Source of the DNA: Erysipelothrix larvae
GTDB taxonomy: Bacteria > Bacillota_I > Bacilli_A > Erysipelotrichales > Erysipelotrichaceae
Assembly (NCBI RefSeq): GCF_001545095.1
Contig: NZ_CP013213.1
Coordinates: 1,710,001-1,742,000, forward strand
Reading direction: 5' to 3'
DNA: 32,000 nt
This document shows, in pieces, positions 4,661 through 25,699 of this stretch (position 1 is its first letter; each line of letters begins with the position of its first letter). The position numbers and the translations under genes are program-made. The notes under the pieces were generated by a model. That model did not search any database, was not told the DNA's origin, and saw nothing but the letters and a program-made list of their open reading frames with translations.

Positions 4661-4793
4661 GAAAAATAGTTTTAACTCCTCAGATTGAATATAATGAAGA
4701 TGGTTATTTAAATAACAGACAATCATTTTTATATTTAGGAGCAAGATACATAATGAAACCTTATCAAAATAGTCAAAGAGAGGCAGGGTTTCT

Positions 4794-11036: not shown

Positions 11037-11218
11037 ACTTTGTCTCCTTGTTAATCAATTCACTAGTATCATATCAGTTATTATTTTTTTCACAAATAAT
11101 ATATGCAAATTAATTCGCATATTTTTTACAATTTTTTCCATGTAAGAATTGTAACCGCTTTGCTTGTGAAAAATATCACTTGTTTTGTTATTCTTTATGT
11201 TTTCATCACAGAAATCAT

Positions 11219-12052
11219 TTATACCTCAATGGTAGTACTCCAATTTTTTTGTGATTGTGGCTCAATCTTTTCAATACCAAATTTATGATTTAGGATTTTA
11301 TCATGATCGATCCGATCCCCAAATCCTGCCCATGGTTCCAAGCAAACAAACGGTGCTTGGGTTCCATCTTCAAGGGTTGGTGTCCAAATTCCAAGATGTG
11401 GATATGAGCGTACATCCATCGCAAGCTTACGTTTTCCATCATGAAGGATTACACGGTGTACTTCTTCAAATACCAAGGTCATGTTTTCATACGTCATCAT
11501 ATCAAAATCAACACGATACCCATCGAATTCAGTTTCACCATTACAATACGGTCCATCAAAGGTATATTGTTTAAATGGCTTAGGTCCTTGTAATTCAATA
11601 TATGCGTCTTTTGATTCGACGATAAATGCCGGATGATATCCAAAGCTGTAATACATATCTGTTTCCCCTGCGTTAACAATGGTCGCATCGATTAATAAAT
11701 TTCTTCCCAATAATGTATAGGCTATAATCACCTCAAAATCAAAAGGATATACTTCACGGGTCTTATCATTACTCATGAATTTTAGTGTACATGCTGTTTC
11801 AGTTTGATCCTCTACGCTAAAATCACTGTCTCGTAGGAACCCGTGTTGAGATAATGGGTAGGTTTTCCCGTCAACACTGTATTCATTATCTAGAAGACGT
11901 CCTACAATCGGAAATAAAAATGGTGCCACACGATTCCACCATGTTGCATCTTTATTCCATAAAATCGATTTCCCATCCACTGTAATGGATTCCAAACTTG
12001 CACCTTTAACAGTAATTTCTGCGATTACTTCATTATTTCTAATTTTAATCAT
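11219..12052 (-). CDS. Aldose 1-epimerase family protein (LacX/YihR-like)
   Basis: 277 aa. The motifs FLFPIVGRL, YPLSQHGFLR, FGYHPAF and CLEPW are characteristic of the small aldose-epimerase family. AAGGAGG RBS. Confidence 0.85.
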   Translation of the reverse strand: MIKIRNNEVIAEITVKGASLESITVDGKSILWNKDATWWNRVAPFLFPIVGRLLDNEYSVDGKTYPLSQHGFLRDSDFSVEDQTETACTLKFMSNDKTREVYPFDFEVIIAYTLLGRNLLIDATIVNAGETDMYYSFGYHPAFIVESKDAYIELQGPKPFKQYTFDGPYCNGETEFDGYRVDFDMMTYENMTLVFEEVHRVILHDGKRKLAMDVRSYPHLGIWTPTLEDGTQAPFVCLEPWAGFGDRIDHDKILNHKFGIEKIEPQSQKNWSTTIEV

Positions 12053-12246
12053 TGGTTCCTCCTTATATATTCACAATTATAATTATATAGGAATTACCTA
12101 GGTAACACTATGGTTTTCATAAACTCTTCACGATGATTCACAAAGATTTCGTATACATTTCAAGTAATTTTATGATACAGAAAAAAAATATTCACACTTT
12201 TGTTTATATCGAGATAATTTCATAAATGATGAGTTCTTCATAATAT

Positions 12247-12320
12247 CCTTACAGGAATTGCCTTATTCAAATAAAAATGAATACACTAAACAACAGATAA
12301 ACAAGGCAATTCTTATAAAG
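12247..12320. repeat. Inverted-repeat element, copy A: arms CCTTACAGGAATTGCCTT / AAGGCAATTCTTATAAAG around a ~38-nt loop
   Basis: The arms are complementary over ~14-17 bp. A second copy with near-identical arms and an unrelated loop is at 21699-21766. Both lie just downstream of a paralog gene and its terminator. Confidence 0.7.
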
Positions 12321-12347
12321 ACACTATAGACCTATTTGGGATAAAAC

Positions 12348-12387
12348 AATAAAGGAGCATAGTAGAAATCTAGTATGCTCCTTTATT
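12348..12387 (-). terminator. Terminator of paralog 2
   Basis: AATAAAGGAGCAT...ATGCTCCTTTATT stem followed, on the minus strand, by T-rich TTTATTGTTTTAT. It is homologous to the weaker hairpin at 21829-21851. Confidence 0.7.
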
Positions 12388-12414
12388 GATTAATGCTTTT
12401 TGATGATTGTTGTA

Positions 12415-14283
12415 TTAATCGCCAATTGAGATCCAAAGTCCTGGACGAACATAGCAAGGCTGATCATACGGTTTACTACTTCCTGGTTTACCATCACTAT
12501 AGATATTTGCGGCAACGAACGAGCTATTAGCTGGGCTTCGCAACCATGAAGACAATCCATCAACGATAGTCGCAGGAGCTATTTCATAATAATTTATATC
12601 TGAAACACTCAGAGCAAATGCAGTCTTAGTACCTGTTTGGCTAACATAAGAGTATGCGTAATCCTTAGTTTTCCAATCGGTGTATATACCCTCATCTTCT
12701 TCTACTTCATAATTTGCTGGAAGAACATAAGCATTGTCTGTATGACTCTTGATGTAATTGTTGTAATACTTTTCATTTACTTCTTCAAGATATGAACCCT
12801 CATAACCTTGATAATTAGCGCCTGTTTTGTTGAATCGAACTTTTCCACTAGAGTGCTCAAATCCCATGGATTGGATAACACTTGCTGAGAGAATATCACC
12901 GAGTAAAAGCGCAGTCTTATTTTGGGCATCAACATACACTATTGTATATATATGTCCAGCGAAGTTAATTGAATCTCCGACTTTCTTGTTTCCAAGATCA
13001 AAACCAGGTGCTTCAGCTTTTGGTTCGACATTTTTAATTGCATCTTCAAGGTCTTCAATCGCTTTGATAACATCTTCGATTGTTGTATTTGGATTATCAT
13101 ATGTGTTTTCGCCATTTTCGATAGCATTTTGAAGTTTATCACCAGACTCATCCGTTAATGTATCTTGATCAATTAGTTTTGCTTCATCAAGAAGGTCTTG
13201 AAGTTCTTGAAGTAAGTCTTCTAAGGTTTTGTTGTTAGAAGATCCTGGTGTTTTGATGTCTTCAAGCATATCGATGATATCAGAGTTTCCATCGGTCCAT
13301 AGTTTCAAGTCGTCTTGAGATACTGCATCCATTGATACATTGATTTGGTAGTTAGCAGTTCCTGTAGGTTGTTTTACAAGAGTTACACTTTCCAAGAAAT
13401 TTGGTGTCATTGTACTTGGTATTTTCGCAACATTACTGTGTTCAAGTGCTTGTCCCCAATAAACATATCCTTGATCACTAGTTGTGTCGATAATCCATTT
13501 CGCAACAGGTTGTTTTCCACCAGCAACCCATTCTTGAAGTGTGATTACTTCGCTACCCAATTGCCACTTAACATACTCATCAAATGGTGATTCAACGCCA
13601 TCCCACTTCTTAATTGTATATGTGCTTTGATCATTTTGCGCTGGTTTAACATCATGTTGTTTATCAGTGCGTGAAGAATCTGCATGATTTTCAACACCGT
13701 CTACAATTGATGTCATATCATCACCAGTTATTCCAGTTACAATATAGTTACCATATTGTCCATTAGGATCATGAGCTTGTGTTCTAATATAGTAGTATTC
13801 TTGCTTGTCAAAGTAACCTTTTAGTTTCTCAATGCGTTGATCATCTTCAAGATCATAATCATGATCGGTTAGATTCAAGGTCGCAAGGAATGCTTCTGCA
13901 GCTTCCTTTGTATCAAAACGATAGAAGTTCCCTTGAGTATCAATCATATAACGATGTCTTGTATAGACATACTCACGGCTTCCAATTTCCATGTACTCTT
14001 TGAATTGAAGACGAATAAATCCATCTTGATAAATTGCGTTGGTGTCGTTATTGTCTTCACCGTTTCGAACAGCAACACTCTTTGTAACTGCTTCACCTTT
14101 CTTCCAATTTGTAACCTCTTTAAAGTTCTCTACAAGAACAATATGATGTTCAAAATCAGCGGTACTAAAGCTGTTATTTTTATGCTGATCAAGGTTTTGC
14201 CATGCAAGTGACCCTGACAACAACAACGCGATAGCGATAGCGCCTGTCGTAAAGGTCGCTTTCTTTTTACGTGTTAGTTTCAT
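12415..14283 (-). CDS. Secreted protein, paralog 2 of 4: SipW-class leader, N-domain, FIVAR-like helical module, DUF6273-like C-domain
   Basis: The ORF track starts at GTG 14301, but that extension (GTGTTAAGGAGGAGAAAG) is itself the SD sequence. I call ATG 14283 (MKLTRKKKATFTTGAIAIALLLSGSLAWQNLDQHKNNSFST). C-terminus ...TAFALSVSDINYYE...SSWLRSP...VRPGLWISIGD. Confidence 0.85.
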   Translation of the reverse strand: MKLTRKKKATFTTGAIAIALLLSGSLAWQNLDQHKNNSFSTADFEHHIVLVENFKEVTNWKKGEAVTKSVAVRNGEDNNDTNAIYQDGFIRLQFKEYMEIGSREYVYTRHRYMIDTQGNFYRFDTKEAAEAFLATLNLTDHDYDLEDDQRIEKLKGYFDKQEYYYIRTQAHDPNGQYGNYIVTGITGDDMTSIVDGVENHADSSRTDKQHDVKPAQNDQSTYTIKKWDGVESPFDEYVKWQLGSEVITLQEWVAGGKQPVAKWIIDTTSDQGYVYWGQALEHSNVAKIPSTMTPNFLESVTLVKQPTGTANYQINVSMDAVSQDDLKLWTDGNSDIIDMLEDIKTPGSSNNKTLEDLLQELQDLLDEAKLIDQDTLTDESGDKLQNAIENGENTYDNPNTTIEDVIKAIEDLEDAIKNVEPKAEAPGFDLGNKKVGDSINFAGHIYTIVYVDAQNKTALLLGDILSASVIQSMGFEHSSGKVRFNKTGANYQGYEGSYLEEVNEKYYNNYIKSHTDNAYVLPANYEVEEDEGIYTDWKTKDYAYSYVSQTGTKTAFALSVSDINYYEIAPATIVDGLSSWLRSPANSSFVAANIYSDGKPGSSKPYDQPCYVRPGLWISIGD

Positions 14284-14367
14284 CTTTCTCCTCCTTAACA
14301 CTGGTACTGCTGGACGTGTCCTGCAAGTAAAACCATCTTACCAAGTGCATGATTTGAAAAAATAATA
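13264..14367. repeat. Tandem direct repeat, copy A (~1.1 kb; 5' two-thirds of paralog 2 plus leader and promoter)
   Basis: It aligns without gaps to 15463-16566 at a constant offset of 2,199 bp. The encoded ~340 aa differ at 9 positions by my count. Identity collapses outside these bounds. Confidence 0.9.
14335..14343 (-). promoter_or_regulatory. Extended -10 promoter TGGTAAGAT for paralog 2
   Basis: The minus strand reads acTTGGTAAGATgg, exactly 51 nt upstream of ATG 14283. The same element sits at 16534-16542. Confidence 0.55.
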
Positions 14368-14780
14368 AAAATTATTCCAGAGGAAAATATGCGTTGGATT
14401 TCGTTTGAGTACAATCATGAACGCTATTTTCTAATATTATTTCTAAATTTGGGAAATTTATATATTTTATTGATTCACTATGAAACTTACGTTATCATTC
14501 TTAACTCAAACTAAATAAATAGAGTTATACAGAGTTAATTATTCAGAAGTCGATGTTATCTATATACAGTAAATTACGTTTGTTTTTCTTATTTCAATTG
14601 ATTAATTTCAATCAATATATAACTTCTACGCAACAGTTTACTGGTACAAATCATTGTAAACTAGCGTTTGGCATCACATCATAATCAGAATACTATCCTA
14701 TTTATAAATTTGTTGCATCTCTTTTATATTATTCAACTGGCTTGTTATAACTGTAGCTATTTTCCCCCATTCAAAATAAT

Positions 14781-14828
14781 AAAAAAGGTTCTAGCGAGAA
14801 GAGAATCATTATCCCATTCGCTACAACC
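14781..14828 (-). terminator. Terminator of paralog 3, separating the two tandem genes
   Basis: GGTTCTAGCGAG (14787-14798) pairs with TTCGCTACAACC (14817-14828) with one mismatch. On the minus strand it is followed by TTTTTTATTATTTT. Confidence 0.65.
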
Positions 14829-14859
14829 TCATATTTATTAAGAAATAGTTAATCCGTAA

Positions 14860-16482
14860 TTATCTGTCAATTGAAATCCAAAGTGCGGGACGAACCAGGT
14901 TTATGTGATTAAACACTTGTCCTGCATATAGCTTACCATCCGTGTATATAGTTCCAGCTTGATCAACATCGCCACCCGGACTGCGAAGCCACGAACCAGT
15001 ACCATCTGCGAGATATACATCAGTCATTTTATAATAATTTATGTCCGAAACTGCTAATGCAAATGCAGTTTTTAGACCATTTTCGTGAATGTAAGAAAAC
15101 TTATCGTTCTTCACATTCCAATTACTTGGGTCGAATCCTTCTACTTGAAATATAGCTGGAAGAACGAATACATTGTCTTCGTGTGTAGAAACCTTCACCT
15201 CATAAAATTTGTCGATAACTTGTTTCAAATAAGATTCTTCGTACCCATCATATTCATCATTCGTTAGAATGTAACGGATTTCTCCACCATAATTGATAAT
15301 ATTCATCTCATTAAGAATATTCCCAGGGATAAAATCTCCTAAGATTAAGGCCGTTCTGTTTTTTTCGTCTATATATTCAATTGTGTATTCATGATCCGCA
15401 AAGATTATTTTATCACCTACACCCTTATCATCAATACTAAACCCTGGTGTTTGGTCTCCCCCAAGCATATCAATGATATCAGGATTTCCATCTATCCATA
15501 GTTTCAAGTCATCTTGAGATACTGCATCCATTGATACATTGATTTGGTAGTTAGCAGTTCCTGTAGGTTGTTTTACAAGTGTTACACTTTCCAAGAAATT
15601 TGGTGTCATTGTACTTGGTATTTTCGCAACATTACTGTGTTCAAGTGCTTGTCCCCAATAAACATATCCTTGATCACTATTTGTGTCGATAATCCATTTC
15701 GCAACAGGTTGTTTTCCACCAGCAATCCATTCTTGAAGTGTGATTACTTCGCTACCCAATTGCCACTTAACATACTCATCAAATGGTGATTCAACGCCAT
15801 CCCACTTCTTAATTGTATATGTGCTTTGATCATTTTGCGCTGGTTTAACATCATGTTGTTTATCAGTGCGTGAAGAATCTGCATGATTTTCAACACCGTC
15901 TACAATTGATGTCATATCATCACCAGTTATTCCAGTTACAATATAGTTACCATATTGTCCATTAGGATCATGAGCTTGTGTTCTAATATAGTAGTATTCT
16001 TGCTTGTCAAAGTAACCTTTTAGTTTCTCAATGCGTTGATCATCTTCAAGATCATAATCATGATCGGTTAGATTCAAGGTCGCAAGGAATGATTCTGCAG
16101 CTTCCTTTGTATCAAAACGATAGAAGTTCCCTTGAGTATCAATCATATAACGATGTCTTGTGTAGACATACTCACGGCTTCCAATTTCCATGTACTCTTT
16201 GAATTGAAGACGAATAAATCCATCTTGATAAATTGCGTTGGTGTCGTTATTGTCTTCACCGTTTCGAACAGCAACACTCTTTGTAACTGCTTCACCTTTC
16301 TTCCAATTTGTAACCTCTGTAAAGTTCTCTACAAGAACAATATGATGTTCAAAATTAGCAGTGCTAAAGCTGTTGTTTTTATGCTGATTAAGGTTTTGCC
16401 ATGCAAGTGACCCTGACAACAACAACGCGATAGCGATAGCGCCTGTCGTAAAGGTCGCTTTCTTTTTACGTGTTAGTATCAT
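14860..16482 (-). CDS. Secreted protein, paralog 3 of 4: SipW-class leader, N-domain, DUF6273-like C-domain, no helical module
   Basis: Start corrected from GTG 16500 to ATG 16482 (MILTRKKKATF...). The N-terminal ~340 aa are near-identical to paralog 2. C-terminus ...TAFALAVSDINYYK...GSWLRSPGG...VRPALWISIDR. Confidence 0.85.
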   Translation of the reverse strand: MILTRKKKATFTTGAIAIALLLSGSLAWQNLNQHKNNSFSTANFEHHIVLVENFTEVTNWKKGEAVTKSVAVRNGEDNNDTNAIYQDGFIRLQFKEYMEIGSREYVYTRHRYMIDTQGNFYRFDTKEAAESFLATLNLTDHDYDLEDDQRIEKLKGYFDKQEYYYIRTQAHDPNGQYGNYIVTGITGDDMTSIVDGVENHADSSRTDKQHDVKPAQNDQSTYTIKKWDGVESPFDEYVKWQLGSEVITLQEWIAGGKQPVAKWIIDTNSDQGYVYWGQALEHSNVAKIPSTMTPNFLESVTLVKQPTGTANYQINVSMDAVSQDDLKLWIDGNPDIIDMLGGDQTPGFSIDDKGVGDKIIFADHEYTIEYIDEKNRTALILGDFIPGNILNEMNIINYGGEIRYILTNDEYDGYEESYLKQVIDKFYEVKVSTHEDNVFVLPAIFQVEGFDPSNWNVKNDKFSYIHENGLKTAFALAVSDINYYKMTDVYLADGTGSWLRSPGGDVDQAGTIYTDGKLYAGQVFNHINLVRPALWISIDR

Positions 16483-16566
16483 CTTTCTCCTCCTTAACAC
16501 TAATACTGCTGGACGTGTCCTGCAAGTAAATCCATCTTACCAAGTGAATGATTCGAAAAAATAATA
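15463..16566. repeat. Tandem direct repeat, copy B
   Basis: Partner of 13264-14367. Confidence 0.9.
16534..16542 (-). promoter_or_regulatory. Extended -10 promoter TGGTAAGAT for paralog 3
   Basis: Same sequence and the same 51-nt spacing to the ATG as at 14335-14343. Confidence 0.55.
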
Positions 16567-16842: not shown

Positions 16843-16917
16843 CTAAATATATAAAATAAATTGATATCTTTTACCTTAAGTACGATTTTAAATTGCAAAT
16901 AACAAAAGGAGATGGCG

Positions 16918-18468
16918 ATGCAAAATCATCTATTTTTTGCTTTAAATAATAATAAACAATTGTGTAGGCAAATTAAAACATTGACCTATATGCGCTCTCA
17001 CGACAGCCCAATGAGTATTAATGAACTGGTACAACATGTGGGATGCTCTATCCCAACAATGCGTCAAGACATCAATAACCTCAATGATGAGCTTATGGGC
17101 TATTTGAAAATTGTATCCAACGATAAAGATGGGTATACATTATCATTGGATACGATGAGTATGGATGCGATTTTGGTGAAGATGGCTAAAGAGAGTGATG
17201 TTTTTCGTATTATTGATGACATTTTCCATCATGAAATCCATACCTTTGATGAATTACTTGCAGATTTATACCTATCGCCAACTAAACTAAGGAAAACATT
17301 AAATCATATAAACACCGTGCTTGTTTCTTATAATATTGCGCTTTCCACACGATATGTTGATCTTATTGGATGTGAATCGGATATCCGTTACTTCTTCTTT
17401 GCCTTCTACAGTGATTTTAATGATTTTTTCACCATTGATAGTAACTTTGATCGGAGGGAGTATATTTATCAGGTGTTTCATGAACGCGCAATTCAGAGTA
17501 TCATCCCTCATTTTCACTTAAGCAACTTTAGAATGACCTTATGGAGTATAATCATCCATAATCGTATTAAACACCAAAGATTTGTAAGGGTTGACGATCA
17601 TCTTAAAGAGGAATTGCAAGTTTTTGTTTCGTTTGAAAAGTTTAAAGAAGCGTTTATCGATGTGTATCGCAATGCATTCTTAATTCATAACCCTCCCCTT
17701 GATGATATTATCTGGGCGTATGCCATGCTTTTACATAGTGTATCCTACAGCGGACCCAGCCATAGCATTTTTAGTCACTACATCAAGGATTATACACACC
17801 TTGAAACGATTCCTTTGGAATTATCGCAGCGTGTTGAATCCTTATTAATGCATCAATTTGATGAACCAACGATTCACAGTACAGCAATTGATCCGGTTCG
17901 TTCTTATTTGATTAACCTTTCAATTCTTACACGTATTTCACCACAACTTCAACGCGTGTCGAAGTCTTTTAAGCTCTTTGCACACGAGACCATTGATGAT
18001 TTAGTCATCCTTTGGATGAACCATCTCGAGACCCCTGAAGCAAAAGGGTTATTACCAATTGTCTTCAAGGAAGATGTTGCGTGTTCATTAGCAATGCTTC
18101 ATTTCTCTTTTATCAGCCACCAAAAGGATTTTGACCTCTGTGTTCTGTTTGCTTTTCATGGTGAACCTGGATATGATGACTTTCTCATGTATCTATCGCA
18201 ATTTATGATTCCTAAAAATGTAACAACTGCGTTTTTGTTTGACAAGCCAATCACACATGATATCTTGAATCTTGTAAACACTGATTTGGTTGTAACAAAT
18301 TATGACTTACCCGATGCACATAAGATGCAGTGTGATGTCATTCAATTATCCTACATACCCAGTATGGCTGAATGGACTTCACTTCGAAATGCAATTCTCA
18401 ATTTGGCTGCTTCAAAGCATTCGCGAAGTAAACCCGATGAAGACATGGATTCACATTCTTTCTCATAA
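16918..18468 (+). CDS. Mga/AtxA-family (PCVR-like) transcriptional regulator, paralog 2
   Basis: The ORF track starts at 16912, directly abutting AAGGAG. The second ATG (16918) gives MQNHLFFALNNNKQLCRQI, which matches the MHNKRLFFSLN / MQSKRLFFLLN starts of the paralogs. Same HTH, Mga and EIIB-like blocks (VLFAFHGEPGYDDF...LVVTNYD). Confidence 0.8.
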   Translation: MQNHLFFALNNNKQLCRQIKTLTYMRSHDSPMSINELVQHVGCSIPTMRQDINNLNDELMGYLKIVSNDKDGYTLSLDTMSMDAILVKMAKESDVFRIIDDIFHHEIHTFDELLADLYLSPTKLRKTLNHINTVLVSYNIALSTRYVDLIGCESDIRYFFFAFYSDFNDFFTIDSNFDRREYIYQVFHERAIQSIIPHFHLSNFRMTLWSIIIHNRIKHQRFVRVDDHLKEELQVFVSFEKFKEAFIDVYRNAFLIHNPPLDDIIWAYAMLLHSVSYSGPSHSIFSHYIKDYTHLETIPLELSQRVESLLMHQFDEPTIHSTAIDPVRSYLINLSILTRISPQLQRVSKSFKLFAHETIDDLVILWMNHLETPEAKGLLPIVFKEDVACSLAMLHFSFISHQKDFDLCVLFAFHGEPGYDDFLMYLSQFMIPKNVTTAFLFDKPITHDILNLVNTDLVVTNYDLPDAHKMQCDVIQLSYIPSMAEWTSLRNAILNLAASKHSRSKPDEDMDSHSFS

Positions 18469-18474
18469 AACTCA

Positions 18475-18498
18475 AAAGGAGTCACTGACTCCTTTTTA
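18475..18498. terminator. Bidirectional terminator between regulator 2 and the LPETG gene
   Basis: AAAAGGAGT-CACTG-ACTCCTTTTT, flanked by A and T runs, in the 35-bp convergent gap. Confidence 0.75.
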
Positions 18499-18503
18499 AG
18501 TGT

Positions 18504-21080
18504 TTATGAATTGGATTCGTTGTGTGATCCTTTTTTCAAGTGTGCAAAGCGTCTTAACTCTTGTAATGCAAAGGTTAATCCTCCAAGACAGACGAGTAAG
18601 AATCCTATAAATGCAGTGTTTCTATGCTCAGTTCCGGTTTCTGGTAGATCTGGTTTTGATGGTTTAACCGGTTTAGGTTCTTCATCAATGCGTTTTTCAT
18701 ACGTGTTGGTGAAGGTAATTGAATCCACAATTTGTCCGGCTTTTGTATAAGTAACCTGATCAACTACAAGTTTCAGTCTTTGTTCACTGACACTTACTTG
18801 AACTGTAACAGGGTCCATATCATATTCATACTCAGAAGTTCGATCGACGATTTCTCGAATGACATAGGTATAAGTGCCTACTTTGGTAAAGGTAATTTCT
18901 CCAAAGGATGCACTCCCTTCCCCATTTATGAGTACAGTGCTTGTATCTTGAACGGGTGCGTTGTTCATCCCCGTCAGTTTAAATGCAAAGGTTTCATCGG
19001 GTGCATTTCCATCGGATTTGATAATCTTACTAATATCAAATTGAAGGCTTGTTGGGACACGGTATGTGAGCTTAATGACATAATTGTCTAAGTATTCGAT
19101 TTCAAAATGTTCGCGGTCTTTTGTTCTGACATAATACTCGATTTCATTGCCATCTTTATCATACTTCGGCACTTCAAACTCAAACTTCCAATCCTGGTCT
19201 TTGTTTGTGGTTGTACATGCAATTTCAACACCATCGCCATTATAAACACACACTTCAATTTCATCTGGAATCACATGATCATAGCCATCTGGAACATTCC
19301 AAATCACTTCCCCTTCAATGATATTGTTGATGATTGATTTATCAAAGGTGTTGACCGCTTTAACATGCGTCGTCGTTCCTTCAACTGCATTCCCTTTTCC
19401 ATTGAATAGATTTAGAATATACCCCTCTTGCTGATAGTCTTTTTCTTTAACTTCATAGTGTGCTCCAGGTTTTACTTCAATCGTTTTAGATTGACCATGT
19501 TTCAACGTGAATGACTCTGTAACACCATCGATTGTGAGTGTAAACTCAAATGCTTTATTTAAGTCTCCTTCACCAACTACTTCTTTTCTTATTTCTAGAA
19601 GCGTTTTTTGTGGTTCAGGTATGAAACGGTTTTTAAAGGTTACAGTTGTATCCTTACGATCCACCACTCCACTCACTGTATTAACAAGTTCTTGATATGT
19701 TTCAAGATCTTGTTCATGGATTTCGTAGGTTGTGCCATAGGGAATGTTCTCAAATACAGCAGTTGAATTTGCTGGGATTTGAAGTGTTGACCCTTCATCA
19801 TACTTCACAGGATTTCCACCGTCAATTGACACAGTAAGTTCTTCAATATGTTCACTAAATGATACGGTAAATGTGAAACTGTCTTTAAGCGTGGTTCCCA
19901 CAACATCTTTTTTAACAATAAGCGATCCCGTCTTTGCTTCAGGTGTATCGTTTAGATAGGTATTGGTCACGACATATTCCATCACTGTATCGCGTGATGT
20001 TGTCCCTTGGATCTCATTGTGTGAACTACTATATCCTTGATTGCTTGCATCAGTTTCCTTGATTGTGTACTTCAAATTGTCTTTGTGTGTCTGTACCACA
20101 AGGGTGTCATAATGTTTGAGCATAATTGTGTCTCCACTTGCGAGTTCAAATGGGATCGAACCATTTAACGATGCAAAGTAGGTCATGCCGTCTTCAAATG
20201 TAATGGTAAATTCAAATTCAGTCAGAAGTTGGTCTAAGGATAATTGTGAACCATCCCGATTCACAACGTGCTTTGTGAGAATAAACGATCCATCCCCTTT
20301 TTCTTCATCAATTACATGAGTAATGGTTACATCATCATGCCCTTTAAGAATTCCTGTAACATCTGTGATATCGGGTGTGTAGCCTTCTTTAGGAATGGTT
20401 TGTATAGAGTATTCAAGACCACATGGAAGGTTTTCGAAAAGAATGGATTCAAGGTGTTTCAAAAAGACTGAACCTGTTCCATCAATCACACCGCTTTGAT
20501 TACTTCCTGTAAAGGTATATGGATAGGATTTTCCATCACTAAATGTAATCACGTACTCAAACTCAAGATTGCGTTGATCATCACTGAGCATGGTGCCATT
20601 ACTGTTTTTCACGATATTCAACAGTTCAAGTGAACATGTATTACATACACTATAGGTTTGAACTAATACATACTTTTTGAGACTACAATCAACACTAAAT
20701 TCAAACTTGAGTGGGTCTTCTAACTGTTCATCAAGATAAAAATCATATCCAGAAGGCGGCATAATTCCCTTGAAGTAATAGTCCCCTGATTCAAGATGCA
20801 GGGTAACTTCTCCTGATTCATTTGTTGTGTAAATATCACCGATACGTTCATCTCCAAGCTCGTTTTTACGGTACAATTCAAAGCTTGCACCTTCTAACAT
20901 TTTACTTGTATTCAGTTCTGAATTATCAAGAATAACAACACATTGATTAAACTCTGTTCCAAAGTTTGCGGTTTTGTGTTGCGTATCATCATACCAAGCA
21001 CTGAGTGTTGAGATTGTAAGGAGCATGACAAATAATGCAATGACCCCCGATTTGATTTTCTTATACGCTCGTTTTCTCAT
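18504..21080 (-). CDS. LPETG cell-wall-anchored multi-domain surface protein: SpaA/Cna-B prealbumin folds and a Spy0128/FctA-like pilin isopeptide domain, with a SipW-class leader
   Basis: Leader MRKRAYKKIKSGVIALFVMLLTISTLSAWYDDTQHKTANFGTE. SpaA-type block FELYRKNE...NESGEVTLHLESGDYYFKGIMPPSGY. Cna-B-like block IEGEVIWNVPDG...DWKFEFEVPKYDKDGNEIEYYV. FctA-like block ETFAFKLTG...GEITFTKVGTYTYVIREI...ITFTNTY. C-terminal LPETG, hydrophobic segment and basic tail. Confidence 0.9.
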   Translation of the reverse strand: MRKRAYKKIKSGVIALFVMLLTISTLSAWYDDTQHKTANFGTEFNQCVVILDNSELNTSKMLEGASFELYRKNELGDERIGDIYTTNESGEVTLHLESGDYYFKGIMPPSGYDFYLDEQLEDPLKFEFSVDCSLKKYVLVQTYSVCNTCSLELLNIVKNSNGTMLSDDQRNLEFEYVITFSDGKSYPYTFTGSNQSGVIDGTGSVFLKHLESILFENLPCGLEYSIQTIPKEGYTPDITDVTGILKGHDDVTITHVIDEEKGDGSFILTKHVVNRDGSQLSLDQLLTEFEFTITFEDGMTYFASLNGSIPFELASGDTIMLKHYDTLVVQTHKDNLKYTIKETDASNQGYSSSHNEIQGTTSRDTVMEYVVTNTYLNDTPEAKTGSLIVKKDVVGTTLKDSFTFTVSFSEHIEELTVSIDGGNPVKYDEGSTLQIPANSTAVFENIPYGTTYEIHEQDLETYQELVNTVSGVVDRKDTTVTFKNRFIPEPQKTLLEIRKEVVGEGDLNKAFEFTLTIDGVTESFTLKHGQSKTIEVKPGAHYEVKEKDYQQEGYILNLFNGKGNAVEGTTTHVKAVNTFDKSIINNIIEGEVIWNVPDGYDHVIPDEIEVCVYNGDGVEIACTTTNKDQDWKFEFEVPKYDKDGNEIEYYVRTKDREHFEIEYLDNYVIKLTYRVPTSLQFDISKIIKSDGNAPDETFAFKLTGMNNAPVQDTSTVLINGEGSASFGEITFTKVGTYTYVIREIVDRTSEYEYDMDPVTVQVSVSEQRLKLVVDQVTYTKAGQIVDSITFTNTYEKRIDEEPKPVKPSKPDLPETGTEHRNTAFIGFLLVCLGGLTFALQELRRFAHLKKGSHNESNS
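18507..18647 (-). other. Sortase sorting signal: LPETG (18633-18647), TM segment, charged tail
   Basis: The minus strand reads GAT CTA CCA GAA ACC GGA ACT = DLPETGT. This is followed by AFIGFLLVCLGGLTFAL and QELRRFAHLKKGSHNESNS. Confidence 0.9.
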
Positions 21081-21679
21081 AAATCAATAACGTTCTTCCT
21101 TTCTTTTTTCAATTCTTTCAAATAATCACTTGCTGAATTTTTAAATGCAATGATGAGAATAACAATAACACCACTTAGGATATAGTTCTCTTTAATGTAA
21201 GAAATATAGATTCCCAACTGAGGAACGGTTAGTTTTACTTCTCCGATCACATTGGCAGCATAGACTTTTTCTTTGTCAATCTCATCGTTATCAACACCTT
21301 TTGTACTGAAAGCAAGTCCATTGCCTTCATAGTTGTCAATCACTTCAACGATTTCGTGGGTAACAATACTCACCTTGCCATTGATTTTGGTGTAATAGGT
21401 GATGTATTCACCCACCTCTAAGGTTTCAGGATCATCTCGATGTGTTACAATGAGGGACCCTCTTGGCATGACTGAACGCATTGAATCGGTTTGAATGTAG
21501 AAGATTGAGGTATCAAAGAGTGTCTTTGCTTCATCTGGACGCTGGTTTTGCAATACAACCAAAACAATAATAAGTCCAATTAACGCATAGAACAGTATCT
21601 CAGAAAGCGACTTCATGACGCTTGAAATTCGATGTTTTTTTATGGGTTTCAATGTTTCGTTCGTTTGGTTTTCATTCAT
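21077..21679 (-). CDS. sipW: Signal peptidase I, ER/archaeal type (SipW-like, S26B)
   Basis: 200 aa with N- and C-terminal TM segments. TDSMRSVMPRGSLIV, VTHEIVEV and TKGVDND line up with SipW SGSMEP, THRI and KGDNN, so the Ser and His are retained. AAGGAAG RBS. The stop overlaps the ATG of the 858-aa ORF (ATGA). Confidence 0.85.
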   Translation of the reverse strand: MNENQTNETLKPIKKHRISSVMKSLSEILFYALIGLIIVLVVLQNQRPDEAKTLFDTSIFYIQTDSMRSVMPRGSLIVTHRDDPETLEVGEYITYYTKINGKVSIVTHEIVEVIDNYEGNGLAFSTKGVDNDEIDKEKVYAANVIGEVKLTVPQLGIYISYIKENYILSGVIVILIIAFKNSASDYLKELKKERKNVIDL

Positions 21680-21698
21680 GGCTATCTTCCTTATCTAT

Positions 21699-21766
21699 CC
21701 TTATAGGAATTGCCTTGTACAAGAATTTGGCTGGCGGAATAGGTTCACAAGGCAATTCTTATAAAG
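21699..21766. repeat. Inverted-repeat element, copy B: arms CCTTATAGGAATTGCCTTG / CAAGGCAATTCTTATAAAG around a ~30-nt loop
   Basis: Near-identical arms to copy A (12247-12320) with an unrelated loop. It ends 20 nt upstream of the sipW ATG, just 5' of its RBS. Confidence 0.7.
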
Positions 21767-21886
21767 ATAACTCATAATTAATTGAGTTGTCTTTATGTCA
21801 TAGTTAATGGTTTACAAACAAGGATCAAGGAGACATACTCAAGTATGCTCCATTGATCGTGTTATTAACTAATATTTGTACTCGTT

Positions 21887-23743
21887 TTATTTAGTAATCG
21901 AAATCCAAAGTGCAGGGCGTAATGCATTAGTGCCTGTTGTACCATTAGCAGTTGTTAATCTTCCTTGGCTGTTTACGATTGCTACATTTACGTTTCCATT
22001 TGCAGGTGTTCTCAACCATACTTCTGTATTTGCATCCAAGATAGTATTTGATATACCATAACGATTTACATCAGATACACTGAGTGAGAATGCTGTTTTT
22101 GTTCCATTTTCATCTACAGTTGTTGGTGTCGCACTTGAAGAATTCCAGTTTGTACTTGCTGATTCAGCTGGTAGGTTTACAGCTAACACAAACTCACTAT
22201 CTTGTTTTCCATTAATAAATGTATTATAGAATGCTGTATCAGCAGTCTTTAGATATGATCCAGAGTAAGCGGTTCTTGAAGTGCCATTATTTTGGTATCG
22301 CACTTGATTGCTCAATATTCCGTGATTAATATCTGCAGTATTCAGATCCGAGTATGATAATACATCAGATAGAATCAATGCAGTGTTCGCTGCTTCATCA
22401 ATATAAGCGATTGTGAAAGTACGGTTAGCAAATTGAATCTTATCCCCTACTTTTTTACCTGTGATGTCAAAACCTGTTGCTTTTACAACAAGGTTATCCA
22501 TAACATCTTGAAGGTTATCAATTGCATTTTGCACTTCTTCAGCTGTTACACCTGATTTATCATGAACTGTTTCACCATTATTGATTGCATCAAGTAAGTC
22601 TTGAGCTGATGCATCTTCTAGTGTAGTTGAGTCAATGAGTTTTGCTTCATCGATGAGATCTTGAAGTTCTTGTAGAAGTTCTTTAAGTTGAGTGTCCTCA
22701 ACAGGTGCTGATCCCTCACTGCCTTTTAACATATTCACGATGTCTTTGTTTCCATTAACCCATAGGTCAAGGTCTTCAATGGATACTGCATCCATAACTA
22801 CATTAATTTGGTAGAATGCTGTACCATTAGGTTGTTCAATCAATGTTACAGTTTCTAAGAAGTTTGGAGTAAGTGTTTCAGGAACTGAAGCAGTCTTGCT
22901 GTGTGCAAGTGCTTGACCCCAATATACCCAACCTTCATCACTCGTTGTATCAATGATCCACTTCGCTACTGGTTGTTTTCCACCTTCAATCCATTGTTCC
23001 AATGTAATGACATCTTCTCCTAATTGCCATTCAACATATTTTTCAAATGCTGAAGTTGAATCATCCCATGTTTTCACAGTGTATTGTGATTCATTATTAT
23101 CTGCAGGATTTTCATCGTGTTGTTTATCATTACGTGCTGATTCAGATTGGTTTGTTTGACCATCAATAATTGATTTCATTTCTTCTTCAACATCAAGGAT
23201 TACAAACTTACCATATTGTCCATTTGGATCATGTGCTTGGGTACGGATGTAGAAATATGCTTGGTCATCAAAGTATCCTTTTTGCGAAACAATACGATCT
23301 TGTGGATCTAGATCAGAATCATAATCTTTTTGGTCTAGTGTTGCTAAGAACGCTTCTGCTTCTGCTTGAGTTGAAAAACGGTAGAAGTTTCCATCTGTAT
23401 CGATCATATAACGATTTTCGCTATATACATAGGTACGTTCGCCAATTTCCATATACTCTTTAAATTGTAAACGGATGTATGCATCCTTATATATAGATTT
23501 AGCTGTGTCAGCGTCTTCACCATTTCTTACAGAAACAGCTTTAACGATTGCTTGACCTTTTTCCCATTCACTTACTTCTTCAAAGTCTTCAATCAATGTT
23601 ACATTGAAGTCTACTGTTTTCGTTGTGAAATTGTTGGTCTTGTGCTGTGTATAATCATGCCACGCAAGTGACCCAGATAATAGTAAGGCGATTGCCAGAG
23701 CACCCGTTGTTACGGTTGCTTTCTTTTTATGTGTTAATTTCAT
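21887..23743 (-). CDS. Secreted protein, paralog 4 of 4: SipW-class leader, N-domain, FIVAR-like helical module, DUF6273-like C-domain
   Basis: Start corrected from GTG 23761 to ATG 23743 (MKLTHKKKATVTTGALAIALLLSGSLAWHDYTQHKTNNFTT). C-terminus ...TAFSLSVSDVNRYG...EVWLRTP...LRPALWISITK. Confidence 0.85.
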   Translation of the reverse strand: MKLTHKKKATVTTGALAIALLLSGSLAWHDYTQHKTNNFTTKTVDFNVTLIEDFEEVSEWEKGQAIVKAVSVRNGEDADTAKSIYKDAYIRLQFKEYMEIGERTYVYSENRYMIDTDGNFYRFSTQAEAEAFLATLDQKDYDSDLDPQDRIVSQKGYFDDQAYFYIRTQAHDPNGQYGKFVILDVEEEMKSIIDGQTNQSESARNDKQHDENPADNNESQYTVKTWDDSTSAFEKYVEWQLGEDVITLEQWIEGGKQPVAKWIIDTTSDEGWVYWGQALAHSKTASVPETLTPNFLETVTLIEQPNGTAFYQINVVMDAVSIEDLDLWVNGNKDIVNMLKGSEGSAPVEDTQLKELLQELQDLIDEAKLIDSTTLEDASAQDLLDAINNGETVHDKSGVTAEEVQNAIDNLQDVMDNLVVKATGFDITGKKVGDKIQFANRTFTIAYIDEAANTALILSDVLSYSDLNTADINHGILSNQVRYQNNGTSRTAYSGSYLKTADTAFYNTFINGKQDSEFVLAVNLPAESASTNWNSSSATPTTVDENGTKTAFSLSVSDVNRYGISNTILDANTEVWLRTPANGNVNVAIVNSQGRLTTANGTTGTNALRPALWISITK

Positions 23744-23794
23744 CTTTCTCCTCCTTAACACTGTATTGCAAGGTAACCTCCTGCAACTACTTTG

Positions 23795-23803
23795 ATTTTA
23801 GCA
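23795..23803 (-). promoter_or_regulatory. Extended -10 promoter TGCTAAAAT for paralog 4 and possibly the sipW operon
   Basis: The minus strand reads aaaTTGCTAAAATcaa, exactly 51 nt upstream of ATG 23743. This is the same spacing as paralogs 2 and 3. The last 20 nt of the leader are identical in all three. Confidence 0.5.
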
Positions 23804-24181: not shown

Positions 24182-25699
24182 ATGCAAAGCAAACGTTTAT
24201 TCTTTCTATTGAACTTTGATAAGCAATTTAGTCGGCAAATACAGACAATTGAATATTTAAGTTCACTTAAAACGCCCATTAGTATTAACGATCTTTCGAT
24301 AAAAATTGGTTGTTCTATGCCGACAATGCGTAGTGATATTAACGCCTTAAACAATGAACTTCCAAACACTGTTCAAATTGAAGCACAAGGAAAAGATGGT
24401 TATGTATTACGTGCACCGGATGGGATATCCATGCCATCGATTATTATGGATTTAGCGAAAGAAACGGATGTTTTTCGAATCATTGATTCGCTCTTCAACA
24501 ATCAAGTCTATACCTTCGATGAGATGGTATCAGAATTGTTTATTAATCCCTGTACCCTTCGAAATATCTTGGCCCACATTAATTCAATTATTAAGCATTT
24601 TAACATCTCTATTTCGACCTCTCCGGTAACCTTCATTGGTTCTGAAACAGATATTCGTTTGTTCTTTTATAAATTCTATTATGATTTTAATGATTACTAT
24701 ACGGTTGATCCTGAATTTAATAAGAACTACAATGCCTATATTTCTATCATTAGTGATTCAAAAGAAAGCATTACCCCTCGAATTCATGTGAGTCATTTTA
24801 GAGCAACACTTTGGATTATGATTATTCGACAACGGATTCAAGCGAAATTGTATGTGGAGTTGGATGATGCCTTCAAACATCAAATTATGGCAAATGAAGA
24901 TTTCGAATGTTTCAAACAATCCTTTACGGCTGCTTTCGCAAGTTCTTTCTATATATATAAACCACCCCTCGATGACATCATCTGGGCGTATGTTGCACTT
25001 TTACACTGCATATCCTATAGTGAGCCATCCCGTAACCTATTTACAGACGATAAATATGAGTATGTGTTGCACCGGTGTGTTAGTCAAGATTTAATCGATC
25101 GTGTCAATGACTTTTTGGCTCTTGAGTTTGATATGGAAACCGTAAAAAGTCCATACCTTGATAAGATGCGGGCTTACCTGATTAATTTATCGATGTTAAC
25201 GAATTTGTCTCCTCAGTTTCAAAGTTTATCCGTCACAACACGTCTATTTGTTACCGAGTCGCTCAATGAATACTATATGATCTGGATGAAAAATTTGTAT
25301 TCAAAAGAAGGACAAGCATTGTTCCCTATTATTTGCCGTGATGATATTGCACTCGCACTTGCGATGCTTTATTATTCTGTATTAAGCAATTTAAGAAAAC
25401 ACGACATTCGCATTCTCTTTTGCTTTCAAGGGGGTGTTGGCTATGACGATTTTCTAGTCCAACAGACTCGAAGCATGATTCCGCAAAATGTCGTTCCATT
25501 CTATGTTTTTGATCAAATCATTACTGAAGATATCTTTAAGAAAACAAATGCTGACCTTGTAGTTGTGAATTATGACTCTCCTGAATTTAATAATTTATCC
25601 ACACGCGTGATTCATTTTTCATACATTCCAACCATGTCGGAATGGTCCACATTGAGTAATATTATCTTGAGTCTATCCACTACCGATAAATACGCCTAA
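24182..25699 (+). CDS. Mga/AtxA-family (PCVR-like) transcriptional regulator, paralog 3
   Basis: GAAGGAG RBS. 505 aa. ISINDLSIKIGCSMPTMRSDINALN, YTFDEMVSELFINPCTLRNILAHIN...IGSETDIRLF, ILFCFQGGVGYDDF...LVVVNYD. It is the closest paralog of the 2450 ORF. Confidence 0.8.
   Translation: MQSKRLFFLLNFDKQFSRQIQTIEYLSSLKTPISINDLSIKIGCSMPTMRSDINALNNELPNTVQIEAQGKDGYVLRAPDGISMPSIIMDLAKETDVFRIIDSLFNNQVYTFDEMVSELFINPCTLRNILAHINSIIKHFNISISTSPVTFIGSETDIRLFFYKFYYDFNDYYTVDPEFNKNYNAYISIISDSKESITPRIHVSHFRATLWIMIIRQRIQAKLYVELDDAFKHQIMANEDFECFKQSFTAAFASSFYIYKPPLDDIIWAYVALLHCISYSEPSRNLFTDDKYEYVLHRCVSQDLIDRVNDFLALEFDMETVKSPYLDKMRAYLINLSMLTNLSPQFQSLSVTTRLFVTESLNEYYMIWMKNLYSKEGQALFPIICRDDIALALAMLYYSVLSNLRKHDIRILFCFQGGVGYDDFLVQQTRSMIPQNVVPFYVFDQIITEDIFKKTNADLVVVNYDSPEFNNLSTRVIHFSYIPTMSEWSTLSNIILSLSTTDKYA

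Follow-up and report, generated by a model that had tools for sequence, protein, structure and literature searches.

The window analysed here is a 32,000-nucleotide stretch of the Erysipelothrix larvae genome (contig NZ_CP013213.1, positions 1,710,001 to 1,742,000). It carries a gene for a SipW-like signal peptidase, flanked on the same strand by genes for two large exported proteins: a 624-aa protein with three further paralogs in the window, and an 858-aa protein bearing an LPETG sortase motif (Table 1). These open reading frames lie where the original prediction had placed them. The sipW stop and the start of the LPETG gene share an ATGA sequence, confirming the overlap that had been claimed.

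Between the stop of the 624-aa paralog gene and the sipW start is a 207-bp gap (21680-21886). Its size agrees with the earlier description. It folds into two strong hairpins (MFE of -54.2 kcal/mol; 0 of 200 shuffled sequences were equally stable). The first, with a U-rich run behind it, may act as a partial terminator. The second, a long hairpin, stops just short of the sipW ribosome binding site. The terminator-like hairpin directly after the LPETG gene would close the sipW-anchor transcription unit. Two regulators of the same family are encoded divergently, one from the 624-aa paralog gene (24182..25699) and the other from the 546-aa paralog gene (16912..18468). The adhesin encoded at 1-1802 (minus strand) has an ordinary leader (MLKKSILILTCIFTLIVGNLVIQA/DT, with the slash marking cleavage), in agreement with the Sec leader ascribed to it. 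Gene and profile searches found no sortase gene within the window.

Table 1. Features of the window; coordinates are counted from its first nucleotide.
Feature	Position	Strand	Details
Subunit paralog, 549 aa	6541..8190	-	motif AWRDINQHKTNQFST at 8071-8115
Subunit paralog, 628 aa	12415..14301	-	motif AWQNLDQHKNNSFST at 14161-14205
Subunit paralog, 546 aa	14860..16500	-	motif AWQNLNQHKNNSFST at 16360-16404
Second regulator, Mga/AcpB/EbpR/MafR family	16912..18468	+	NF053736, 170 bits
Terminator-like hairpin and T run	18474..18496	-	directly after the LPETG gene
LPETG protein, anchor or initiator candidate, 858 aa	18504..21080	-	ORF list, domain matches
LPETG sortase motif, residues 812-816	18633..18647	-	TM segment and basic tail follow
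Motif of the LPETG protein, AWYDDTQHKTANFGT	20955..20999	-	predicted cleavage A28/W29 and putative donor strand
sipW-like signal peptidase, 200 aa	21077..21679	-	ORF list, translation
Catalytic residues of the sipW product	Ser66 21482-21484; His108 21356-21358; Asp135 21275-21277	-	
Structured intergenic region, 207 bp	21680..21886	-	folding, z = -5.0
Subunit paralog	21887..23761	-	624 aa from GTG; 618 aa from ATG at 23743, the gene caller's start
Motif of the 624-aa subunit, AWHDYTQHKTNNFTT	23621..23665	-	predicted cleavage A33/W34 and putative donor strand
Mga/AcpB/EbpR/MafR-family regulator	24182..25699	+	NF053736, 181 bits (above 130); Mga HTH

The SipW-like signal peptidase

Judged by its profile matches, the sipW product is an ER/archaeal-type signal peptidase I of the SipW class and not a P-type enzyme. 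Specifically, it scores 66.4 bits against TIGR02228 (cut-off 51.85) and matches none of the P-type signal peptidase models. Hydrophobic TM segments are visible at both termini, and the blocks TDSMRS, THEI and KGVDND begin at residues 64, 107 and 127. In an alignment with human SEC11A, Ser66 and His108 fall on the SGSM serine and the VHRV histidine, which we take to be Ser56 and His96. Residues S66, M67, T107, H108, G128, N131 and D135 are invariant in an alignment of 150 homologues. The ER-type assignment made in the original prediction from these blocks and the terminal TM segments is borne out by the TIGR02228 score and by the invariant serine and histidine. Its reading of KGVDND as equivalent to GDxN holds for the conserved glycine and asparagine within the block, but not for the acidic residue: Asp130 is variable among the 150 homologues, and the invariant Asp135 lies just past the block. 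The peptidase is not an orthologue of Bacillus SipW; its score against NF046067 is 59 bits where the cut-off is 190.

Exported proteins and their shared N-terminal motif

The 624-aa paralog comprises a signal peptide, a putative donor-strand motif, a BsaA-like N-domain of ~310 aa, a FIVAR-like helical linker and a DUF6273-like C-domain (Peptidase_M73, E = 4e-4; DUF6273, E = 2.5e-4). Residues 13-86 match the BsaA model TIGR04090 at 39.4 bits (E = 5.5e-10; cut-off 60). With 27-44 bits the four window paralogs all stay under the 60-bit cut-off, and their matches are confined to the first ~70-85 of the 241 model positions. Throughout the N-domain family all 20 members match TIGR04090 (best E = 1.3e-16), and with 61.1 bits the relative P0174 passes the cut-off. 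These matches suggest that the paralogs are distant relatives of the BsaA family. The AF2 model of the 624-aa paralog has a pLDDT of 76.9. The fold search against TasA/camelysin proposed in the original prediction gave no significant link to TasA: Foldseek ranks TasA (8aur) second at E = 0.26, hhalign of the subunit family against TasA gives E = 0.13, and a profile search of PDB sequences did not find TasA. The 628-aa and 546-aa paralogs are 96% identical in the N-domain but only 44% in the C-domain.

In the LPETG protein, a signal peptide and an N-terminal strand precede about nine Ig-like pilin-type domains, the LPETG motif, a TM segment and a basic tail. Pfam assigns SpaA, DUF7601 (four copies), DUF5979 (three copies), Cna_B and FctA domains, and TIGR03786 is matched at 49.6 bits (above 31.85). 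The sorting signal scores 13.5 bits against TIGR01167, just under the cut-off of 15.9. Foldseek finds likeness to the Streptococcus pyogenes pilin Spy0128 (E = 2.6e-11) in the first two domains.

A six-frame translation of the window contains the motif AWx4QHKx3FxT exactly five times, at the N-termini of the four paralogs and the LPETG protein; 200 shuffled windows do not contain it at all. In all five proteins it sits just after the signal h-region, as had been noticed from the sequence alone. The A/W pair is probably the SipW cleavage site of all five substrates. The motif had been called a SipW-class leader, and this description fits the A/W pair at the predicted cleavage site; however, QHKxNxFxT would stay on the mature protein. 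Furthermore, the expected match of the leaders to the SipW-cognate signal model TIGR04088 did not appear for any window protein. The four paralogs have the sub-cut-off TIGR04090 matches only, and the leader of the LPETG protein matches nothing.

Residues A33, W34, Q39, H40, K41, N43, E58 and K74 are conserved at 90% or more in the subunit family alignment. In AF2 monomer models the strand is unstructured in both kinds of protein. Residues 28-50 of the 624-aa subunit have pLDDT below 50, and predicted strands at 54-60 and 71-80 hold L56, E58 and F60, and K74, V78 and N80, respectively. In the LPETG protein residues 20-43 are disordered (pLDDT below 50) and form a flexible tail ahead of complete, confident beta domains that begin at residue 47. 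In BsaA, residues 28-38 serve as the donor strand in a published model, and oligomers no longer form when either N35A or K74A is introduced (PMC11580942). By analogy with this segment and with TasA and TapA (PMC10151520), the conserved stretch after A/W is most likely more than a leader feature, namely the N-terminus of the mature protein, which would serve as donor strand in a TasA/BsaA-type fibre. Asn43 of the 624-aa subunit is a candidate isopeptide residue. Where the subunit family reads KTNNF the LPETG protein reads KTANF, with Ala in place of Asn and the Asn shifted by one residue.

Related loci and known fibre systems

The linkage of sipW to the subunit family anticipated by the original prediction recurs widely: of 28 related loci, 22 have a sipW gene, which in 18 cases is no more than 600 bp away from a gene for a subunit. 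Thirteen loci, namely the window and twelve relatives, encode a sortase substrate that carries the same strand at its N-terminus. Some of these candidate anchors are long pilin-like stalks (L001, L003, L009 and L026). Others, of ~190-280 aa, consist only of leader, strand, Pro/Thr-rich linker and PxTGD signal (L011, L013, L014, L017 and L025). Class B sortases adjoin several of these loci. At the variable positions of the strand, an anchor is closer to the subunits of its own locus than to those from elsewhere (a value as high as the observed one arises in 19 of 20,000 shuffles). This matching speaks for joining in a fibre, but common ancestry or a common SipW specificity might explain it instead of a shared groove. 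The roles originally proposed, in which the paralogs polymerise as subunits and the LPETG protein forms the wall anchor or base, fit this comparative sequence evidence, minimal anchors included.

Comparable arrangements are known. BsaA and TasA genes occur in operons with LPxTG, SpaA-domain, sortase and signal-peptidase genes (PMC11580942). In the Clostridium perfringens sipW-bsaA-bsaB-bsaC operon, as in the window, a dedicated SipW adjoins TasA-like subunits and there are several paralogs per locus (PMC7395162, PMC11580942). BsaA secretion is SipW-dependent, and BsaA polymerises (PMC7395162). The N-terminus behind the SipW-type signal is modelled as the donor strand of the C. perfringens subunits; the same is proposed for the window paralogs, which match the BsaA model over leader, strand and first beta-strands. 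Unlike BsaA, they fall below the family cut-off, match over just the first ~72 of the model's 241 positions, and have a larger N-domain and big C-terminal DUF6273-like heads. The C. perfringens operon also has an adjacent sortase gene and a vWA protein (BsaC), both lacking in the window. Its speculative wall anchor is a BsaB-like LPXTG protein found in most strains (PMC11580942), whereas the window candidate is a nine-domain pilin-type stalk.

Bacillus subtilis tapA-sipW-tasA likewise combines an accessory substrate, SipW and a fibre subunit, with the accessory gene overlapping sipW (PMC10151520, PMC9674648). The original prediction called this synteny exactly the same; the substrate-peptidase-substrate arrangement and the overlapping anchor-like gene agree, but the order in the window is subunit, sipW, anchor. 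TapA, whose Ig fold is complete, lends its N-terminus to TasA and occurs only at the filament start (PMC10151520), where it is thought to tie fibres to the cell. We suggest the same place for the LPETG protein, which has the subunit's strand on a flexible N-terminus with a complete Ig fold behind, although it has no detectable sequence homology to TapA. Anchoring in the window would be covalent, through LPETG and a sortase, whereas TapA has no sorting signal. TasA also lacks an isopeptide triad, unlike the window subunits with their candidate triad.

AbpX biomatrix loci (bioRxiv 10.64898/2026.01.04.697558) similarly link TasA-superfamily fibre genes to signal peptidase I, sortases and LPXTG anchors, and AF3 predicts that the LPXTG anchor joins the AbpX fibre by donor-strand complementation. 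They differ from the window in subunit family and peptidase, which is described as a ten-TM form where the window enzyme has two TM segments, and no pilin-domain stalk has been described for AbpX. Anchoring is a prediction in both cases. The claim that no SipW-class leader was known on a sortase substrate built from pilin domains was overstated, as PMC11580942 and the AbpX preprint precede it. LPXTG anchors for such fibres have already been predicted in two preprints (2025, 2026), and the wall-tied strand-insertion design has so far only been predicted.

A putative wall-tethered fibre and its alternatives

Because five substrates share the N-terminal strand, the likeliest product of the locus is a strand-insertion surface fibre tied to the cell wall. 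We estimate a probability of about 60% that the locus builds a TasA/BsaA-type protein fibre, or a stalk-and-head adhesin, tethered in this way. Sec would export all five proteins and SipW would cut after the Ala of the A/W pair, releasing a ~15-residue N-terminal strand (Wx4QHKxNxFxT). The strand of each of the four paralogs is envisaged, by analogy, to enter the subunit that follows at its BsaA-like N-domain, in donor-strand exchange. An intermolecular isopeptide bond might lock the junction; Asn43, Glu58 and Lys74 are candidates because they are family-invariant and by their presumed correspondence to BsaA N35-E56-K74. A covalent lock to the E. larvae anchor is doubtful, given the Ala at the family Asn position. 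The divergent DUF6273-like domains would be shown outward as variable heads. Since the LPETG protein has only complete pilin-type Ig domains behind its strand, it can supply a strand but is probably unable to receive one. Like TapA in the TasA filament, it would serve as the initiator at one end of the fibre; unlike TapA, it would be fixed covalently to peptidoglycan by a sortase encoded outside the window.

The resemblance to the S. pyogenes FCT pilus (Spy0128/FctA, SipA/LepA, class B sortase) raises a different reading, in which the LPETG protein is a sortase-polymerised pilin and the peptidase homologue an assembly chaperone like SipA/LepA. The two systems share Spy0128-like isopeptide Ig domains (in the window, the first two of the LPETG protein), and each has an LPXTG-type sorting signal and encodes a signal-peptidase homologue. 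FCT islands require a signal-peptidase-like protein for pilus assembly, and class B sortases, the class that polymerises Spy0128, adjoin related loci. SipA/LepA, however, is a P-type homologue without catalytic residues, whereas the window enzyme is ER-type with its Ser, His and Asp invariant. FCT pili polymerise through sortase without BsaA/TasA-like subunits; the window has no sortase, a single sortase substrate and no second pilin, and the BsaA-like paralogs and minimal anchors would be left unexplained. We regard a sortase pilus as very improbable.

It is rather unlikely, in our view, that the motif is only a SipW recognition and cleavage determinant on five physically unconnected cargo proteins, four secreted DUF6273 proteins and one ordinary wall-anchored adhesin. 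The position of the motif directly after the h-region in five of five proteins would suit this explanation, and SipW-class substrates share conserved residues near the cleavage site (the TIGR04088/TIGR04090 concept, with the partial TIGR04090 matches). The matching of strands within a locus is also expected if one peptidase must fit all its substrates. Signal peptidases, however, read mainly -3/-1 and the h/c-region, which leaves a 15-residue mature-side block unexplained; minimal anchors that conserve only strand and sorting signal would be functionless; and the equivalent segment is a donor strand in BsaA, TasA and TapA.

The fibre reading must also be weighed against monomeric secreted or surface proteins, lectin- or enzyme-like, with a non-polymerising N-domain and an N-terminal segment that folds back or is a propeptide. 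The non-significant TasA match is compatible with this possibility, as is an N-domain that exceeds TasA in size with extra helical inserts, and a shallow 20-sequence alignment may be part of the reason for the strand's low pLDDT. We nevertheless consider it improbable, in view of the TIGR04090 matches across the whole family, the tight sipW linkage and the same strand on unrelated sortase substrates. Furthermore, near-identical N-domains beside divergent heads are expected of an assembly module.

Signal peptidase and shared N-terminal motif

The window originates from the Erysipelothrix larvae chromosome; AOC36_08020 and AOC36_08015 match its 200-aa and 858-aa products, respectively, at 100% identity. 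The ORF layout described in the original prediction, including the overlap of the sipW gene (encoding the 200-aa protein) with the LPETG gene (encoding the 858-aa protein), is present as listed in the table.

Features of the locus and of related loci (window positions, except for the minimal anchors, which are numbered in their own loci)
Feature	Positions	Strand	Remarks
624-aa subunit ORF	21887-23761	minus	GTG start; 618 aa from the ATG chosen by the gene caller
Intergenic gap, 207 bp	21680-21886	minus	between the 624-aa paralog and sipW downstream; two strong hairpins, z = -5.0
sipW ORF, 200 aa	21077-21679	minus	
LPETG ORF, 858 aa	18504-21080	minus	overlaps sipW by ATGA
Terminator-like hairpin 3' of LPETG gene	18496-18474	minus	
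546-aa paralog of the 624-aa protein	14860-16500	minus	
628-aa paralog of the 624-aa protein	12415-14301	minus	
549-aa paralog of the 624-aa protein	6541-8190	minus	
Three paralogous regulators, Mga/AcpB/EbpR/MafR family	2450-3913, 16912-18468, 24182-25699	plus	NF053736 170-181 bits
DUF6431 ORF, then ISL3-family transposase (491 aa)	4190-6269	plus	between the first regulator and the 549-aa paralog
Adhesin	1-1802	minus	runs off the window
Minimal anchors	L011 8332-8946, L013 8235-8909, L017 9402-9983, L025 3943-4632, L014 9373-10224		

The sipW product matches TIGR02228, the model for archaeal/ER-type signal peptidase I, with 66.4 bits (cut-off 51.85), its residues 25-177 lying on model positions 3-148 of 158. 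No P-type signal peptidase model was matched in the NCBIfam scan, and the Pfam scan gave no match at E ≤ 0.1. Ser66 and His108 align with the serine of SGSM and the histidine of VHRV in human SEC11A, which we take to be the catalytic Ser56 and His96. Of 5,966 homologues, the 150 best show no variation at S66, M67, T107, H108, G128, N131 and D135, although D135 is one residue out of register with the catalytic Asp in the pairwise alignment. The protein carries a Ser and His catalytic pair with a conserved Asp, not the P-type Ser/Lys dyad, and sequence comparison assigns it to the ER/archaeal-type signal peptidases I of the SipW/Sec11 class, as had been proposed. In the KGVDND block singled out in that proposal, G128 and N131 are indeed invariant, but Asp130 varies; the acidic residue that stays invariant is Asp135, just past the block.

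Against the Bacillus SipW equivalog NF046067 the protein scores 59 bits, under the cut-off of 190; by its sequence it belongs to the class of Bacillus SipW but is no orthologue. Its nearest relatives among the matches listed are metagenome-derived and about 40% identical. Some relatives of roughly 490-710 aa contain tandem double peptidase domains (L003 2045-3538; proteins P0013, P0014, P0018 and P0025), and in many others the N-terminus is extended by a long cytoplasmic part. At 200 aa, the E. larvae enzyme represents the minimal form.

Five exported proteins, the four paralogs and the LPETG protein, had been said to share the motif AW-x4-QHK-x3-F-x-T. A six-frame translation of the window contains it exactly five times, each directly after the hydrophobic core of a signal, and it occurs in 0 of 200 shuffled windows. 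The suggested check of these leaders against TIGR04088 returned no match for any of the five N-terminal 60-mers at E ≤ 10. TIGR04090 was the only model matched by those of the four paralogs, and the 60-mer of the LPETG leader matched no model at this threshold. A cut at A|W is favoured because it would leave Ala at -1 and Ser/Thr/Leu at -3, in keeping with the rule for these positions; a cut ahead of the motif Ala is disfavoured, since -1 would then be Leu or Tyr. By analogy, we infer that A|W is the cleavage site and that the following W-x4-QHK-x-N-x-F-x-T would be kept on the mature protein as a donor strand.

Subunit family and candidate anchor

The four paralogs have in common an N-domain of about 310 aa for which there is no Pfam model; only its first ~75 residues give a sub-threshold match to the TasA/camelysin family PF12389, Peptidase_M73 (20.6-21.3 bits, gathering score 22.5). 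The BsaA model TIGR04090 scores 27.5-44.5 bits with the window paralogs, below its cut-off of 60, over model positions 1-72 of 241. It matches 20 of 20 members of the family alignment, including one relative (P0174) that exceeds the cut-off with 61.1 bits; across the family, this match runs from the leader through the motif into the first beta-strands and no further (model positions 1-72 to 1-84 of 241). Because coverage is partial and the window scores fall below the cut-off, we regard the family, at the sequence level, as a distant relative of BsaA rather than a formal member.

At least 90% conservation is found in the family alignment for A33, W34, Q39, H40, K41, N43, E58 and K74 (numbering of the 624-aa paralog). 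In the AF2 model of the subunit monomer, which is mostly beta (pLDDT 76.9), the motif-bearing residues 28-50 are unstructured with pLDDT below 50, and E58 and K74 lie in predicted strands 54-60 and 71-80. The fold search against TasA and camelysin called for in the original prediction did not yield a significant link: Foldseek gave E 0.26 against TasA 8aur, hhalign of the family with 8aur_A aligned the K-x-V-x-V-x-N-G strand at E 0.13, and a family-profile search of PDB sequences retrieved no TasA, its one match being leader-like and attributable to chance.

The 546-aa and 628-aa paralogs form a mosaic pair, 96% identical over residues 1-355 (DNA ~95%) but only 44% identical in their DUF6273-like C-domains, which fits an assembly module that is conserved while its cargo varies. 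For these tandem genes, the mosaic pattern points either to gene conversion in the N-domain or to heads that have diversified. Elsewhere, locus L028 encodes a 2,162-aa protein (9704-16192) with the subunit N-domain (E 1.5e-23).

The 858-aa protein contains SpaA, four DUF7601, three DUF5979, Cna_B and FctA domains, all above Pfam gathering scores, and matches TIGR03786 with 49.6 bits (threshold 31.85). Its C-terminus consists of LPETG (residues 812-816), the hydrophobic transmembrane segment FIGFLLVCLGGLTFAL and the basic tail RRFAHLKK; TIGR01167 scores 13.5 bits, just below 15.9. The AF2 model has an unstructured tail at residues 20-43 and, from residue 47, confident beta domains that match the S. 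pyogenes pilin Spy0128 (Foldseek E 2.6e-11). These sequence features identify it as a probable sortase-dependent LPXTG surface protein with pilin/adhesin-type Ig domains. NCBIfam and Pfam scans revealed no sequence similarity to TapA. TapA-like initiators are a functional class and not a sequence family, and the protein fits this class by its layout (the shared N-terminal motif, a flexible tail, then Ig domains) and by the ATGA overlap that couples its gene to sipW.

Metagenomic proteins 29-31% identical are its closest homologues among the matches listed. They begin with the same AW..QHKTN and end in xPxTGD-type sorting signals, and their genes lie in loci with the order sipW, BsaA-like subunit(s), pilin-like sortase substrate, some of which include a class B sortase. 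The E. larvae anchor reads KTANF where the family has KT-N-x-F, so that its Asn lies one position away. No sortase gene was found in the 32-kb window. The LPETG signal, as against xPxTGD in relatives with class B sortases, suggests that the E. larvae anchor may have moved to a housekeeping sortase.

Scanning species-representative genomes with the subunit alignment revealed 25 further loci, mostly in Oscillospiraceae MAGs, and 28 non-redundant loci were compared in total. The neighbourhood survey upholds the conserved linkage that had been postulated, as 22 of the 28 loci contain sipW, in 18 of them at a distance of less than 600 bp from a subunit gene. Relatives L007-L030 are almost all Oscillospiraceae/Clostridiales MAGs whose isolate names we take to be those of termite-gut bins; E. 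larvae itself comes from the gut of a beetle larva. The family may be typical of insect guts, and its apparent concentration in these presumed insect-gut MAGs hints at a possible role in colonising the gut.

A sortase substrate with the same N-terminal strand occurs in 13 loci (the window and 12 relatives). Five of these proteins are minimal anchors of ~190-280 aa, built of a leader, an AW..QHK[ST]N strand, a Pro/Thr/Ser-rich linker and a PxTGD signal, in which only strand and sorting signal are conserved; those of L011, L013 and L017 sit between sipW and the first subunit gene. At the variable positions of the strand, anchors share a mean of 4.35 of 14 identities with subunits of their own locus and 3.34 of 14 with those of other loci. 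Only 19 of 20,000 shuffles reach the observed value, in a control in which shared ancestry remains. By this measure, an anchor strand is closer to the subunits encoded beside it than to subunits from elsewhere.

A possible hybrid of pilus and matrix fibre

Secretion of BsaA is SipW-dependent, and its polymers are stable to heat and SDS (PMC7395162). The BsaA signal is of the SipW type and 27 residues long, residues 28-38 have been modelled as a donor strand, and N35 forms a bond, catalysed by E56, with K74 in the following subunit, oligomers being lost in N35A or K74A variants (PMC11580942). TasA fibres are built by donor-strand exchange, and TapA, whose homologous N-terminus is donated but whose Ig fold is complete, can be placed only at the filament start (PMC10151520).

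If SipW cuts at A|W, the N-terminal strand would stay on the mature proteins. The N-domains could then serve the paralogs for polymerisation or docking, leaving the divergent C-terminal heads exposed, possibly with an N43-K74 lock catalysed by E58, by analogy with N35, K74 and E56 of BsaA. The LPETG protein would give a strand but present only complete Ig domains, and might serve as both a TapA-like initiator and a covalent wall anchor. What was observed (the gene anatomy, the class of the peptidase, the shared motif, the synteny and a strand that is disordered in the monomer models) is consistent with a hybrid Gram-positive organelle, to which we assign a probability of about 0.5. In it, a sortase-anchored stalk made up of pilin domains with stabilising isopeptide bonds (a bare Pro/Thr linker in relatives) would join a TasA/BsaA-type fibre via its free N-terminal strand by donor-strand exchange, with a possible intermolecular isopeptide lock and interchangeable heads, and the ER-type peptidase would time assembly by releasing the strand.

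The motif might instead serve SipW recognition only, the five proteins being independent cargo. We consider this unlikely, as it leaves unexplained both the long conservation on the mature side and the minimal anchors. That the paralogs are simply monomeric secreted proteins seems to us quite improbable. A sortase pilus like those of FCT islands, with the peptidase as a chaperone, is barely credible. The SipA/LepA proteins of those islands have a P-type fold without catalytic residues, whereas the sipW product is ER-type; its model match and its invariant catalytic Ser and His contradict a SipA/LepA-type role in pilus assembly.

A hybrid organelle, if real, would bear on how TasA-like matrix fibres are attached to Gram-positive cells and would unite two assembly principles considered separate. 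The tie through TapA is non-covalent. BsaA/TasA genes often share operons with genes for LPxTG and SpaA-domain proteins, sortases and signal peptidases, and an LPXTG-bearing BsaB-like protein, found in most C. perfringens strains, might anchor the fibre, a link that is speculative there (PMC11580942). For AbpX loci, AF3 models predict donor-strand complementation between an LPXTG anchor and AbpX subunits (10.64898/2026.01.04.697558, a 2026 preprint). The statement that no such case had been described must therefore be narrowed: LPXTG anchors with BsaA/AbpX fibres had already been proposed, but a pilin stalk as candidate strand-donating anchor is new. Also new is the subunit family, which has large heads and no Pfam model and whose members are annotated as hypothetical or MucBP proteins. 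The anchors range from strand, linker and sorting signal to a nine-domain pilin stalk; this range, with its new series of minimal anchors, suggests that the element that matters for function is the N-terminal strand. Finally, E. larvae offers, as a further new point, a species that can be cultivated and has a single sipW, a single anchor and four subunits whose heads have diversified, which opens the idea to genetic tests.

Neighbouring genes and RNA features

The three regulator genes are each divergent from a gene for a surface protein, which is the adhesin (ending at 1802) for the first, the 546-aa paralog for the second and the 624-aa paralog for the third. This arrangement resembles ebpR-ebpABC. 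The adhesin, partial in the window, has the ordinary Sec leader that the original prediction ascribed to it, together with Big_8 and SpaA domains; in the longer contig L032 (1-2598) it reaches 866 aa and is incomplete there too. An ISL3-family transposase gene, preceded by the DUF6431 ORF, is also present. Within the gap upstream of sipW, the second hairpin is a long stem with almost perfect pairing, GAAUUGCCUUGU...ACAAGGCAAUUC, and stops only a few bases short of the ribosome-binding site of sipW. It could stabilise the RNA, mark a site of processing or act as a palindrome to which a protein binds.
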